Source: Spirochaetia bacterium (lineage in GTDB: Bacteria; Spirochaetota; Spirochaetia; SZUA-6; Bin103). Taken from it: DNA of 64,000 nucleotides. The stretch lies in contig CBDBDQ010000005.1 of the NCBI GenBank assembly GCA_965203905.1, positions 320,001 to 384,000 on the forward strand. The letters run 5' to 3'. A model generated the notes under the pieces. The model worked only from the letters and a program-made list of their open reading frames with translations. It did no database searches and had not been told where the DNA came from. Positions 25,217 through 30,697 of the stretch are shown in pieces. Each line of letters begins with the position of its first letter. Within the stretch, counting starts at the first letter, position 1. Both the position numbers and the translations under genes were made by a program.

Positions 25217-27229
25217 CTACTCATCCAGATAGAATTGAACCGGGTAAAATGAACTCCAGTTGTGCGTATCTGAACCCTTGAGTCCGATATGCGGGACATT
25301 TTGCAGATTATTGTTCACGATCACCGGAAACGGCATCTGGGCCACCGTTCCTATCGTCCAGAGATTCTCCGTCTGAGCATTTACCAGGTCTTTCCCCGCT
25401 CTAAAGCGAACCTCGGGATCCGCCGAACGGGTAAATGTTACAAGGTCGTTAATAAGCTTCTTGATATGCTCCGGCGGTTCCTCTCCCTGTTTTCCTTTGG
25501 TAGCGTTCCATTGCAGCCACAATGGCATGGGACTCCAGGGCACCTGTCCAAGCGGCCACGCGGGAGCCAGCGTGAAAATCGGTGTAAGAGTCAGAATAGG
25601 ATCTGTAGTTCTCTCAATTACCCATTCCCCCATGTCAAAATCGTTGGCCCTCCAGCGAGTTATTTTCAGGCCGATACTGATCATTTCCAAATCGATGTTC
25701 AGGCCGACATCTTTCCAATACTCCAATGCCATTTCCAGGACATCCACTTTGGGGGTCAAGTACTCTGCGGTGGTCAGTGTCGGATTGAATTTTGTTCCGT
25801 CAGGACCCTCCCTGAATCCGTCTCCATCGACGTCCACCATTCCCATTTCATCGAGCAGCTCATTCGCCTTTTCTACGCTATAGTCGGCGAAGGATTGTTC
25901 ATAGCTCTTTTCCCAAAACTGGCTCGTGGTAGTTACCGTCGATTGTGACGGAACGGCCATACCGAAAAAGACCTTTTCATTGATCGCTTCGCGATCGAGA
26001 GCATGCGATAGAGCTTTTCTGAAACGAACATCGTTGAAAATCTCTCTGAGGACAGGGTCAGGGTGAGTAAAGTTGGGATATATGGCAACCGCGTTTCCTC
26101 CGGTATGAGTAAACACGTAGGTTCTGTAGTTCCCTTTTTCTTCGTTCTCCTTAATTATGGGAAGATCGACGAATCTCAAGTTCTGGCCCGCCATCGTCGC
26201 TTCTCCGGTTACCGCCTTCATTGTCATCATTTCATTGCTGGAGGCTAGATTAACTCGGATATGGTCGATATAGGGAAGCTGATTACCTTCGGTGTCGACG
26301 AATGCAAAATAGGGATTGCGCTCGAATAGGATATGAGTTTCTGACCGTTCTATCGGGATGTACGGCTTGACGTTGGGTCTGACTCGATCAGGAAACACGA
26401 TTCCATGCTGGCCGCCGTTCATGTAACTGTAGAACTGATACCAGTGATCGAAGCCCAGCTCTTTCGCCTTTGCTTCCAATTCGTTTTTGTCGACAAAATC
26501 AGCATGGTAGTTCTGCAAGTATTTATGAGGTGTATCGATTCCCCTGTCCCCCAATCGTACGTGGAACCAGGCATCAGGCTGAGTCAGCTCGAATTGTACG
26601 GTATAGTCATCGATCTTGCTCACATTTGATATGCCCGTCGGCACCCCGTCCTCGGGCGGTATCGGGCTTAGATCCTCGTTGTTTGCCACGTGCTTCCACC
26701 AGAAGAGGTAGTCGTCGGCCGTAAGCGGATCTCCGTTCGAGTACTTCAAGCCTTCCCACAGGTAGACCGTGAAGGACTTGTTGTCAGTTGAGTATTCCCA
26801 ATCCTTGACGATATAGGGAAGCATCTCAGTTGCGGTCGGGTCCGAACGCAGATAATTCGCCCCGCGTATCCACACCAGTGCTTCACTTGCCCATCCGGTA
26901 GAAGCTAGTTGAGTTGCCCACACTACGGCGGTGCCACCGTACTTACCGACATTTTCATACGGTTCGATAACAGGCGGATCATCCGGCAGTCTTTGCGCCA
27001 CCGGGGGTAGCTGACCGGATCTTACTCGCTCATCGAGTAACGGGGATTGGTTGAATTCCCTTATTCCCCATTGGGATGCGGTCTGTGGAGCGACAAACCA
27101 GCTGTCGGGAATACTGGGGTCGACAAGGCCTCTCTCGATGAAACCTTTGATCACCTCCTGTTTCTCAGCGAAGACGGCTGCAGGGACGATCAACGTAAGA
27201 GCCAACATGGCGAGAAAAAATCTTTTCAT
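25217..27229 (-). CDS. ABC transporter family-5 (Opp/Dpp) solute-binding protein
   Basis: Signal peptide, LPPVAQRLP..P, GKYGG, ERNPYF..VDTEGNQLPYID, DVRFRKALS. Confidence 0.9.
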   Translation of the reverse strand: MKRFFLAMLALTLIVPAAVFAEKQEVIKGFIERGLVDPSIPDSWFVAPQTASQWGIREFNQSPLLDERVRSGQLPPVAQRLPDDPPVIEPYENVGKYGGTAVVWATQLASTGWASEALVWIRGANYLRSDPTATEMLPYIVKDWEYSTDNKSFTVYLWEGLKYSNGDPLTADDYLFWWKHVANNEDLSPIPPEDGVPTGISNVSKIDDYTVQFELTQPDAWFHVRLGDRGIDTPHKYLQNYHADFVDKNELEAKAKELGFDHWYQFYSYMNGGQHGIVFPDRVRPNVKPYIPIERSETHILFERNPYFAFVDTEGNQLPYIDHIRVNLASSNEMMTMKAVTGEATMAGQNLRFVDLPIIKENEEKGNYRTYVFTHTGGNAVAIYPNFTHPDPVLREIFNDVRFRKALSHALDREAINEKVFFGMAVPSQSTVTTTSQFWEKSYEQSFADYSVEKANELLDEMGMVDVDGDGFREGPDGTKFNPTLTTAEYLTPKVDVLEMALEYWKDVGLNIDLEMISIGLKITRWRANDFDMGEWVIERTTDPILTLTPIFTLAPAWPLGQVPWSPMPLWLQWNATKGKQGEEPPEHIKKLINDLVTFTRSADPEVRFRAGKDLVNAQTENLWTIGTVAQMPFPVIVNNNLQNVPHIGLKGSDTHNWSSFYPVQFYLDE

Positions 27230-27250
27230 TTTTCTGCCCTCCTAGTTTCT

Positions 27251-27278
27251 ATTATTGATGAATTTTGGCTCTTGTCAA
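27251..27278 (-). promoter_or_regulatory. Putative sigma70 promoter of the SBP gene
   Basis: TTGACA (27278-27273), 16 nt, AATAAT; AGGAGG RBS before ATG 27229. Confidence 0.45.
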
Positions 27279-27344
27279 GCTCACCCCCCGGGCCGGGACG
27301 GACCGGAGTTGGCATGGGAGAAACAGGGCTGCAAGCCTATACTG

Positions 27345-27540
27345 GGGGTTAGTCTTCGAGGGAGCGCGAAGTAGGCCGGCGATGCACTGGTGTAGCGCCC
27401 TGCGGCGAACCCGTTGTCAAGCTTGGTCCCGAGGCCCGTGGCGTTGTCATTGGTGAGGCTCAGCCCGCGACCGGTTGCGGTGGTGATCCATCCCGATAAG
27501 GAGAATGCGCAGTTGCTTCACGCCTTGGCCGCTCCACTCA
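27345..27540 (+). ncRNA. Putative IS110 bridge RNA (boundaries approximate)
   Basis: Follows TATACT (27338-27343); contains TTGTCAAG(CT) identical to the left flank and TAAGGAG identical to the element right end. Confidence 0.6.
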
Positions 27541-27555
27541 TTCCCAGGAGGAGTC

Positions 27556-28950
27556 ATGGCACGACGCAAACGCAGAAGCAAACGCAGCGGCAAGGGCAAT
27601 CGCTCGGCGCAGCCGCAGGTGGTGCACCCCGAGGCGGCAGGCCTGGATGTGGGCGCCACCATGATCTACGCGGCGGTACGCGCTGAGCGCGCCGAGCAGC
27701 CGATCCAATCGTTCCCGACCTTTACCCGCGATCTGCATGCCTTGGCCGATTGGCTGAGTACCTGCCAGGTAACCACGGTGGCCATGGAGTCGACCGGCGT
27801 GTACTGGATCCCGGTGCACCAGATCCTGGAAGCACGCGGCTTCGAGGTGGTGCTGGTCAACGCTCGCCACGTGCGCTCGGTGCCCGGTCGCAAGAGCGAC
27901 GTCGAGGACTGCGAATGGCTGCGTTGCCTGCACTCGGTAGGGTTTCTGCGCGGCTCGTTCCGACCGGCTGACGAGGTATGTGCGGTGCGCTCCTTGTTGC
28001 GCCATCGCGACAGCGTGATCAAGACCGCCTCCCGCAGCGTACTGCACATGCAGAAGGCGTTCGATCAGATGAACGTCCATCTGCACCACGCGATCTCCGA
28101 TCTGACCGGGCTCAGCGGCCTGGCCATCACCGACGCCATCCTGGACGGAGAGCGCGACCCGACGCGCTTGGCGAAGCTGGCGCACCCGCGGATCAAGGCC
28201 AGCCGTGCCACCCTGATCAAGGCTCTGGAGGGTGATTGGCGCAGCGAACATCTGTTCACCTTGCGCCACGCACGCCAGACCTATGCGCACTACCAGCAGC
28301 TCATCAGTGAGTGTGACCAGGAGATCATGGCCCGCATCCGCGCGTTCGAGCAGACCCAGGAGCCGCCCGCCGCGACCGCTACCGACCAGCAACCGCCGGA
28401 ATCCCCTGAACCGGGCCCGGAACCGCCTGCGTCGCCTCCGCAAGCGTGCAACATGAAAGCCCACCTGACGCGGTTGTTCGGCACCGACCTGACCCTCATT
28501 CCCGGTATCGGCGACACTACCGCGCTGGTGCTGTTCAGCGAACTCGGCCCCGATCTGTCACGCTTTCCGAGCGCCGCGCAGTTCGCATCCTGGTTGAACC
28601 TCTGTCCGCAGAACAAGATCACCGGCGGCAAGGTGATCAGCTCTCAGACGGGGCCCGGCGCCAACCGTGCGGCACAGGCGCTGCGCATGGCAACCCAGAC
28701 CCTGTACCGCAGCCACTCCGCGCTCGGTGACTTCTTCCGCCGCAAGCGGGCCCGCGTCGGCTCCCCGCAGGCGATTACCGACACCGCCCACAAGCTGGCG
28801 CGCATCATCTACCACCTGGTGACCCGCCACGTCCTCTACGATGACAACGTTCTGCTCCAGCAACAGCGCCAGGACCGTAAACGCCATGAACGGCGACTTC
28901 GAAATCAGGCCCGCGCTCTCGGCTTCAAACTCGTTCCGGAGGCTGCCTGA
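27556..28950 (+). CDS. IS110 family transposase/recombinase
   Basis: DEDD RuvC-like motifs GLDV, MESTGVYW, KSDVEDC; Transposase_20 region IPGIG...FASWLNLCP...AHKLARIIY; AGGAGG RBS. Confidence 0.95.
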   Translation: MARRKRRSKRSGKGNRSAQPQVVHPEAAGLDVGATMIYAAVRAERAEQPIQSFPTFTRDLHALADWLSTCQVTTVAMESTGVYWIPVHQILEARGFEVVLVNARHVRSVPGRKSDVEDCEWLRCLHSVGFLRGSFRPADEVCAVRSLLRHRDSVIKTASRSVLHMQKAFDQMNVHLHHAISDLTGLSGLAITDAILDGERDPTRLAKLAHPRIKASRATLIKALEGDWRSEHLFTLRHARQTYAHYQQLISECDQEIMARIRAFEQTQEPPAATATDQQPPESPEPGPEPPASPPQACNMKAHLTRLFGTDLTLIPGIGDTTALVLFSELGPDLSRFPSAAQFASWLNLCPQNKITGGKVISSQTGPGANRAAQALRMATQTLYRSHSALGDFFRRKRARVGSPQAITDTAHKLARIIYHLVTRHVLYDDNVLLQQQRQDRKRHERRLRNQARALGFKLVPEAA

Positions 28951-29029
28951 ATGCTTGGTTTCTAAGGAGGTTCTCAATTGCGGGATCGCCAGATCCCGCA
29001 CGGCAGCGGGAGAGCGGACGGCGCGGCCT

Positions 29030-29140
29030 GAGGGCGTGATGGCAAGGGCGGCGGACAGCAGCGCGCAACACGCCGGCATGGCCGGCGCGAGCAATAGTGA
29101 GCGGCCGGTGGAACCGGAAGTGGTAGCGTGGGCACGAGTT
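29030..29140 (+). pseudogene. Possible IS3-type orfA N-terminal remnant
   Basis: ...SNSERPVEPEVVAWAR resembles the PDPEVVA(K/R) start of some IS3 OrfA proteins; truncated. Confidence 0.3.
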
Positions 29141-29174
29141 GCCGGACCTGGAACTGTGACCGCCGGCGATCCGG

Positions 29175-29350
29175 TCAGAGACCCTGCTGTGGCGCAAGTA
29201 CGTGGACCGCTCCCATTGCCTCGGCTTGCGCTCCGCTGCCGGGAGCACAGATGCGCTATATGGCCACCAGCCAAGCACCAGTTACTGGCAGCGCTCGGTT
29301 TTCGGAGCCTGCGCTTTGGAAGGCGACAGCGCGAGATCGGTTCATCGGAG
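29175..29350 (+). pseudogene. Decayed DUF4338 (IS4-associated / DruA-like domain) fragment
   Basis: Pieces across frames: LWRKYVDRSHCLG / PLPGAQMRY / LLAALGF / WKATARDRFIG. Confidence 0.6.
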
Positions 29351-29662
29351 CCGTGCGCCTGGCAACCGAGAGGGGCACGTGAGCATCGGTAGTGGGGCGT
29401 GCGAGCGAAGCCTTGAGCGTCGCAAACGCCGGTACCGGCGTTCCACCGTCCCACCGCCTCGAGGCCTCCGAGCCCCTGTTCTACGCCGCGCTCGTCACCA
29501 CGCTCCGGAGATACTGCGCGACCGGATCAGCGATTTCGAACGCCGCTGGCAGAAAGCGTCGCCCGATGATGGTGGTCAGCATCGAAGGAGCTCCACTGGG
29601 TGCTGACGTCGTGCCATCCACCCGCCGTAGGCACTTCGGGTCATGCCTCGGCGTCACCTCCC

Positions 29663-30697
29663 CTACTGCGTCGCTCTCATCTCTCCGTAACCTGAAAGTC
29701 TCAGCTCTTCGGCAAAATGGCAAGAAACGAAATGTTCCGGCCTACCGCCAACGGGGGCGAGCTCCGGCTCGTCTTGTTGGCATCTGTCTTGAGCATAAGG
29801 GCATCTAGGATGGAAGTTACAACCTGCCGGCGGATCGGCCGGATTCGGTACATCGCCACCCAACGGTAAGCGCTTCCTACCTGAGCGCGGATCTCCTACC
29901 GGAACCGATTTAAGTAATGCCTCGGTATAGGGATGCTGCGGTGTCTGGTACAGATCCTTGAACTCTGCTATCTCTACTATTTTGCCAAGATACATAACCA
30001 TGACCCGATCACTTATATGTTCTACCACGCTTAGATCATGGGCGATAAAGAGATAGGTCAAGTCGAACTCGTCCTGCAAGTCCTCCAGTAGATTCAAGAC
30101 TTGCGCTTGGACCGACACGTCCAATGCCGAAACCGGCTCGTCACATATGATCAGTTTGGGATTCACGGCCAACGCCCTCGCTACCCCTATCCTCTGTCTC
30201 TGCCCTCCGCTGAATTCATGGGGATAACGATACATCCCACGTCGGTCCAGACCGACAAGCTCAAGCAACTCTTCCACGCGGTCCGTTTGTTCCGTCCGAT
30301 TACCGATTTTGTTTACTCTTAGGGGCTCCGCCATGATGTCGCGAACCGACATCCTTGGATCCAGAGAGGAAAAAGGGTCCTGAAATATGATTTGGATATT
30401 ACGCCGTACACTTTTCAGCTCCTCATTGTCCGCCGCAGTAACATCCAATAATCGCTCATCGTGCAGAAACCTGATTCTCCCGTCAGTGGGCTCTATCAAC
30501 CTATTGATACAGCGGCCGGTAGTCGATTTTCCGCAGCCACTCTCACCGACAAGGCCCAATGTTTCGCCCTCCCTTATGGAGAATCCGACGCCGTCGACCG
30601 CTTTGACGTGACGTGAGATCCTCTGGAAAATACCCTTACGTATGGGGAAATATTTCCGCAGATTTTCCACCTCTAGCAGCGGACTATCCCGAGTCAC
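29663..30697 (-). CDS. Opp/Dpp ABC ATPase (OppF-like)
   Basis: [25 protein letters not shown], oligo_HPY C-terminus. Confidence 0.93.

Follow-up and report, generated by a model that had tools for sequence, protein, structure and literature searches.

Can a mobile element be directed, by an RNA of its own, to a short word that often forms part of a promoter? This question is raised by a locus in a 64,000-nt stretch of the genome of a Spirochaetia bacterium (this whole stretch is hereafter the window), in which positions 27280-28969 are, with high probability, a recently active insertion sequence of the IS110 family guided by its own bridge RNA. The preliminary description of the window had recognised an IS110 element, taken two words repeated between its left non-coding end and its junctions for guides of such an RNA, deduced an AG core and the corresponding empty site, and proposed that the target lay on the -35 hexamer of the adjacent binding-protein gene. 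These proposals were followed up computationally through the copies of the element, its unoccupied sites and its relatives; the coordinates of the features are collected in Table 1.

The ends of the element follow from its copies. The home assembly (8.0 Mb, five contigs) contains 12 matches to the region, five of which are full-length and 100% identical; the block common to these five is exactly 27273-28969, starting with TGTCAAG at every left junction and ending with TAAGGAG, and the sequences outside it are unrelated. Two unoccupied sites were found. One is a paralogue of the flanks of copy L003, located 20 kb off (C5:6674043-52), where TGTCAAG is followed directly by the right flank CGTGCGCAG. 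The other is a 3,919-nt contig of the public run X4 at the exact window locus, in which 27277 is joined to 28968, with 1,690 bases skipped and a joint ambiguous by two bases. From these two independent empty sites, the unoccupied target can be written as CTTGTCA-AG-GTTCTC and the element as 27280-28969 with AG on both sides, its right-hand AG being 28968-28969. The two-base core is thus single in the empty site and doubled around the insert, and terminal inverted repeats are absent, as in other members of the IS110 group. The core, the boundaries and the empty site given in the preliminary description were all borne out, with CTTGTCAAG followed by GTTCTC found literally in the X4 contig and in the same form at the paralogous unoccupied site.

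It could be supposed that TGTCAAG, carried by all five copies, is simply the terminus of the element itself and that its internal copy is a protein-binding repeat rather than a guide. However, both empty sites keep TGTCAAG, which refutes such a reading; moreover, among relatives the word varies next to element sequence that remains similar, and the internal word matches it in every case. We consider a terminal origin of the word extremely improbable.

Besides the empty allele of the window locus, run X4 contains element contigs that break exactly at 27273; a related population that has the element elsewhere is therefore either polymorphic for the insertion at this locus or lacks it. The orthologous locus, sought with the left flank in 25 related genomes, was not found there; the one match obtained was weak and 89 bases long. 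The home genome also carries a 525-bp 3' fragment of the element (L007, G000:C5:3942917-3943441), 100% identical and truncated within the transposase gene.

The repeats from which the guides had been read are present as described: TTGTCAAGCT occurs at 27272-27281 and 27414-27423, and TAAGGAG at 27497-27503 and 28963-28969. The match of the first, ten-base word is real for TGTCAAG and for the following CT, which is considered below; its first T (27272) is a chance agreement, seen in one of the five own copies. Matches to the element were found in 20 of the 41 genomes searched (the home genome, G000, and 40 of the same genus, family and order), and in these relatives the internal words change together with their DNA partners. 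In two diverged copies of the home genome (76% and 75% identity), the internal and junction words have both become TGTGAAG (L006) or AATCAAG (L008), and L008 shows a similar joint shift, to TCAGGAG, of its second internal word and its right end. In the G020 family, TGTCAAG is found in 8/8 copies; in the G004 family, the word is TCAAGAG in 7/7 copies, with the right end TCAGGAG. The two words agree as AGTCAAG in L026, and the right-end and internal words agree also as TTAGGAG in L014-L016 and as TTAAGAG in L017. The same framework, with guides covarying with their DNA partners, was recognised in other phyla, in metagenome-assembled genomes of Vicinamibacterales, Bacteroidales and Cyclobacteriaceae, at 41-58% protein identity.

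A wider comparison was made with 80 metagenome relatives, 39 of which could be parsed, and with 200 shuffles as the null. Of 32 testable loci, 19 had the internal left 7-mer again at the distance upstream where it was expected (shuffle mean 1.2, maximum 4), and the right 7-mer recurred after the gene in 25 of 33 (shuffle mean 5.6, maximum 10). Judged by this covariation of sequences, from the genus to the metagenomes, the two internal words are identified as the left-target and left-donor guides of a bridge RNA and are not chance matches. The doubt that TAAGGAG might merely be a Shine-Dalgarno sequence for the ATG at 27505 can be dismissed, because the word covaries with the right end and the start of the gene is a conserved ATG at 27556, which has its own AGGAGGAG, relatives having a 2-base indel between 27505 and 27556.

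Table 1 Features of the IS110-family element and its surroundings (window coordinates)
Feature	Position	Strand	Evidence or remark
Inserted IS110-family element	27280-28969	+	1,690 bp including right-hand AG; copies and empty sites
Left target TGTCA	27273-27277	+	Flanking DNA outside the element; part of TTGACA on the minus strand; retained in both empty sites
Core dinucleotide AG, left copy	27278-27279	+	X4 joint ambiguous by exactly these two bases
Conserved GC-rich hairpin CCGGxCC...GGxCCGG	27288-27306	+	Near left end; compensatory differences among ten clade members, by eye
TATACT, putative -10 box of the bridge RNA	27338-27343	+	TAnnnT at the same alignment position in 10/10 clade members
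Predicted bridge RNA body	27358-27539	+	RNAalifold; outer helix 27358-66 with 27530-39
Target-binding module	27374-27428	+	Stem P1 (27374-78 with 27424-28) around right-target guide, hairpin A and left-target guide
Right-target guide position CGAUG	27380-27384	+	5' side of loop, directly before conserved CANU-GGUG
Hairpin A	27386-27414	+	Stem 27386-91 with 27409-14; 80% of cells paired
Left-target guide UGUCA and core AG	27415-27421	+	3' side of loop; covaries with junction word
CU, handshake-like pair	27422-27423	+	Same as first two bases of the element left end
Donor-binding module	27429-27528	+	Stem B (27429-34 with 27523-28) around hairpin D and left-donor guide
Left-donor guide UAAGG and core AG	27497-27503	+	3' side of loop; covaries with right end
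Transposase/recombinase gene, 464 aa	27556-28950	+	Pfam PF01548 (5.5e-19) and PF02371 (6.7e-14)
Right end: left donor TAAGG and core AG	28963-28969	+	Comparison of copies and relatives
Right target GTTCTC	28970-28975	+	Flank differs between copies
Family-5 solute-binding protein gene	25217-27229	-	PF00496, 1.4e-58
Promoter-like site TTGACA-N16-AATAAT of the binding-protein gene	27251-27278	-	11/12 matches; 1 site vs 0.2 expected in shuffles
Degenerate DruA-like remnant	29128-29382	+	PF14236, E 0.002, under curated cut-off; outside the element

Several arrangements among the relatives deserve separate mention. A metagenome relative with 47% protein identity (L125, ~327-470) has the same target guide, TTGTCAAG, with the flank TGTCAAG, and differs in its donor guide (TCAAAAG). 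In L061 (G014:C1, ~1990-2200), the right end of a complete copy, ...TTTCTAAGG-AG, directly abuts the left end of a second, diverged element; the latter has TAAGGAG as its own target guide and so seems to have inserted at its relative's right end, giving a tandem right end-AG-left end junction. A similar arrangement is present in L028. In the left flank of L008 (~1100-1300), a second AATCAAG followed by ATGAGAA is located 22 bp upstream of the junction; the combination of left and right flank seen at the occupied site is thus repeated close by, as if an unoccupied copy of the target stood there. Finally, four Vicinamibacterales relatives (L014, L019, L022 and L023) share a conserved left flank of ~60 bp whose reverse strand encodes an IGEGGMGQVY-like stretch; a kinase gene as their target is not claimed, the frame being open in one of the four and lacking a kinase continuation.

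The left end, 276 bp long and upstream of the gene, was found to hold a conserved structured RNA with two loop modules in an alignment of 47 sequences (A3), the kind of left end that is characteristic of the IS110 group, and the folding of homologous left ends suggested in the preliminary description did reveal both the loops and the covariation. Pairing was counted for a hand-specified structure on this alignment. Over the whole structure, 76% of the cells pair against 68.2% in shuffles, with none of 500 shuffles as high and all slid controls lower. Stem P1, which closes the target-binding module, is paired in 99.1% of the cells, with changes on both sides at three of its five pairs; hairpin D of the donor-binding module (27451-58 with 27488-95) is likewise paired in 99.1%, with changes on both sides at four of seven pairs. 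An initial consensus model, in which the donor module was nested in a long helix right after the target guide, was dropped on account of the 99% pairing of P1. The position of the candidate -10 box is occupied by a TAnnTTTG word in Bacteroidales relatives. At the opposite side of the element, only 19 bp follow the stop codon. The clade conserves a 6-bp inverted pair, AGAAAC at 27319-27324 (40 bases in) and GTTTCT at 28958-28963, beside the donor word of the right end, which may represent a short asymmetric subterminal repeat.

The right-hand guides could not be assigned by eye in the preliminary description, and one of them has now been located. In 24 metagenome relatives whose right flank is known, the four to five bases before the CANU-GGUG of hairpin A complement bases 1-4 of the right flank (54 of 96 cells vs 27.2 expected; z 6.2; 0/1,000 shuffles), and other registers give nothing. 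A handshake-like match was also detected between the two bases that follow the left-target guide and the first two bases of the left end: of 31 loci, 25 agree at base 2, where 8.4 were expected (z 6.6), and all 31 agree at base 1, where 21.4 were expected. This identity explains why the repeat noted earlier ran on into "CT". The corresponding bases after the donor guide did not covary with the right flank. The left-target and left-donor identity rows of the all-columns scan are circular, the junctions having been found with those very words, and were not used. Thus, of the loop strands whose covariation with DNA marks the IS110 group, the left-target and left-donor guides show it, the right-target guide shows it only in relatives, and a right-donor guide was not found.

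A number of results weigh against the reading of the element as one guided by a bridge RNA. As for the guides, those of the G014 family read AGTAAAG while their flanks mostly read TGTAAAG, an exact 7-mer match being present in one of four left flanks, and one relative (L013/L024) combines the donor guide TAAGGAG with the right end TCAGGAG, one base off. In the clade of the window element itself (26 sites, several families), the right-target signal is absent (26 of 104 cells vs 25.0 expected), and no credible right-donor guide emerged either from the bases before the second CANU-GGUG compared with left-end bases 1-6 (nine offsets, 19 loci) or from the all-columns scan. As for the structure, stem B is paired in 57% of the cells on the wide alignment and the outer helix in 54% (47 sequences), so the ends of the RNA body are approximate; by eye, three clades have different complementary sequences in these two helices, where the wide alignment is imperfect. 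The single-sequence fold gives no support from stability (z +1.08 vs shuffles), a search of 26500-29800 against Rfam 15 with E up to 1 returned no matching family, and a promoter scan of the plus strand yielded none for the bridge RNA, with no -35 to match TATACT.

Since the insertions in the clade ignore the right-target guide and are constrained by TGTCA-AG only, their effective target is 7 bp. It might be argued instead that the true target is longer, comprising TGTCA-AG and a right half complementary to 27380-84, and that the copies seen are half-match or off-target insertions. The right-target signal in the relatives speaks for such an extension, as do copy L002, with a 9-base right flank complementary to 27377-85 when shifted by one base, and copy L005, with 4/4 in register; half-match insertion has moreover been reported for IS621 (bioRxiv 10.64898/2026.08.31.748434). 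On the other hand, the 26 clade sites represent four or more families and give no signal (z 0.3-0.5), and 2 of 270 unoccupied sites match at least 8 bases (three with a guide string longer by two bases), so that the L002 match is weakly significant at best. The longest matches of the right flank to 27373-86 in the five own copies (2, 9, 4, 5 and 4 bases) are suggestive only. We therefore regard the longer target as rather unlikely and retain the 7-bp word as the target effective in the clade.

The two Pfam domains of the protein are DEDD_Tnp_IS110 and Transposase_20. A DEDD RuvC-like domain at the N terminus is thus combined with a serine-containing Tnp domain at the C terminus, as in IS110-group recombinases, which confirms the identity given in the preliminary description. 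Residues D31, E78, D115, D118 and S363 are invariant in seven homologues and are putatively catalytic, a role assigned by analogy since only the Tnp domain aligns to IS621, with a weak match (E 1.5e-6). Plasmid relatives at 45-50% identity are annotated merely as IS110 family transposases.

What, then, is the target? On the minus strand it reads CTTGACA, and the element targets this word, which is often a -35; as it is the -35 consensus, many of the target sites are promoters. At the window locus, the promoter-like site anticipated in the preliminary description was found 44 bp upstream of the start of the binding-protein gene and is followed by AGGAGG and then ATG. Because the insertion point is directly upstream of the -35, both promoter hexamers survive. 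The genome has 280 copies of the 7-mer, ten of them in the five elements and 270 unoccupied. Among 14 occupied sites, drawn from this genome and two related ones, 9 are situated just upstream of a co-oriented open reading frame (ORF), against 63 of 270 (23%) unoccupied ones (one-sided Fisher p 0.002), as judged by a crude rule based on ORFs and GC content at third codon positions (GC3). In L053 (G020:C4), a copy of the G020 family has CTTGACA ~32 bp upstream of a tRNA-Val gene (2026-2099), in the -35 position.

These figures admit the possibility, raised earlier, that promoter homing is programmed, the guide being kept on the -35 consensus as a gene-sparing safe harbour. Apart from the 11/12 promoter of the window copy, the ORF enrichment and the tRNA-Val copy, it is favoured by guide variants of the clade that stay near the consensus (CTTGACT, CTTTACT, CTTGATT and CTTCACA; CTTTACT is the guide of G014, whose flanks read CTTTACA or CTTTACT) and by L125, in which the same guide and flank are accompanied by an AT-rich -10-like stretch. 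However, the motif is itself promoter-biased and selection purges intragenic insertions, so the enrichment does not show choice; its null was, in addition, drawn from one genome, with 9 of the 14 occupied sites lying in others. A -10 box with at least 4/6 matches was found at 3 of 17 TGTCAAG sites only, and L003, L005 and L025 are not near gene starts. The guide variants are one base off one ancestor, as expected by descent alone, and distant relatives target unrelated words. A deliberate homing to promoters is therefore plausible and inseparable from the distribution of the motif and from selection; as an explanation in its own right it is somewhat doubtful, and any adaptive value of the -35 target would be a further supposition. 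A literature search for IS110 elements with a TTGACA target site found nothing, although such a target may still be in print; the supplementary data of Durrant may already give a model or the guide order for this subfamily.

The preliminary description had offered, as an alternative, that the target was an inverted repeat of an adjacent IS3-like remnant. This identity of the right flank was rejected: the neighbour is DruA-like and related to an IS66-family element, and it is not the target. The remnant, which sits between the IS110 copy and ATP-binding cassette (ABC) ATPase genes, is 74% identical at the DNA level to a portion of a 2,591-bp element (L076, G000:C5:6890961-6893551), which has terminal inverted repeats and occurs elsewhere in the genome in six copies, five identical and one differing at one base. 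This IS66-family element combines a DDE_Tnp_IS66 transposase (1e-59) with a second ORF carrying a DruA (Druantia) domain (7e-48).

A scheme of transposition can be proposed in which the left non-coding end would encode a bridge RNA of ~180 nt composed of two similar tandem modules, each consisting of a stem that closes it and a hairpin, itself closed by UGG...CCCG, with one loop strand on the 5' side and another on the 3' side. This RNA would be made from the element and bound by the transposase; the joined ends, ...TAAGG-AG-CTCACC..., would then recombine, through a presumed strand chemistry, with a target TGTCA-AG-N, leaving the element inserted with AG on both sides. The genes of the RNA and the transposase would be inverted relative to the crossover site, with the 3' guide as the long one, and in practice only 5+2 bases, the word CTTGACA, would be read in this clade. 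It may tentatively be suggested, with the balance of probability on the other side, that the element represents a deep-branching IS110 lineage, having an upstream bridge RNA, guide order of the IS1111 type, inverted cargo and half-site 5+2 recognition, that has settled on the sigma-70 -35 consensus and, inserting directly upstream of promoters, leaves them working. If true, evolution would here have produced a safe harbour next to promoters, and half-match recombination would have an example in nature.

Bridge recombinases have been engineered on a single structural template, IS621, whereas the window element occurs naturally in several copies, is evidently active and comes with all its junctions, an empty allele and dozens of relatives. 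The location of its long guides on the other side of the loops and the sufficiency of 7 bp in nature bear on which loop strand carries specificity, and the element also bears on how much of the target must pair, which is the half-match question, and on cargo orientation with respect to the crossover. More generally, the example illustrates how RNA guidance can lead an element to a promoter word that is universal; from this one can predict where elements of the kind will gather and in what ways they might alter the upstream control of genes while leaving these intact.

The coincidence of an orientation-specific target with a signal of gene expression has a parallel within the family, in the mycobacterial IS900 group, whose members insert between the ribosome-binding site and the start codon. 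The window element differs from them in that the signal is a -35 hexamer and the insertion point lies upstream of it.

The closest comparison is with IS621, the conventions of which are taken here from the published descriptions (Durrant 2024, PMC11208160; Hiraizumi 2024, PMC11208158). The two systems share a recombinase of the DEDD + Tnp type, an RNA encoded in the long left end that precedes the gene, two tandem modules each made of a stem, a loop strand, a hairpin and a second loop strand, guides that contain the two-base core flanking the insert, the lack of terminal inverted repeats, and two handshake-like bases after the 3' target guide, the handshake guides of IS621 following its right-target guide (PMC11208158). 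The differences are as follows. The proteins are distant, and the core reads AG rather than CT on the transposase strand; the long guides of the window element are 3' of the hairpins in both modules, the opposite order, with a long target guide of 5+2 bases and a right flank unconstrained in the clade; no right-donor guide was found in the window element, in which the two modules may be enclosed by an outer helix. In each module, the strand that is identical to the top DNA strand thus lies 3' of the hairpin, and the IS621 geometry fits only when the opposite strand is read. This reading restores the published picture, with the core CT, a 3' guide on the core and the right half of the top strand, and two handshake bases. 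The element is most simply described as having its cargo inverted with respect to the crossover site, the long guide now being the 3' one.

The reversed order has a counterpart in the seekRNAs of the IS1111 type (ISEc11, ISPa11 and ISKpn4), which lie downstream of the gene and have their guides reversed, according to Siddiquee et al. (2024, PMC11187229). As there, a segment complementary to the top strand precedes the one that pairs with the bottom strand, so the guide order of the window element agrees with that of the seekRNAs. In contrast to them, its RNA lies upstream of the transposase gene; moreover, IS1111 elements have subterminal inverted repeats of 7-17 bp, and a comparison of the terminal 60-mers of the window element gave an inverted match of at most 6 bp, lying 40 bases from one end and 7 from the other. 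In sum, the window element is a member of the IS110 bridge-RNA family that differs from the structural archetype, IS621, in guide order and in effective target length.

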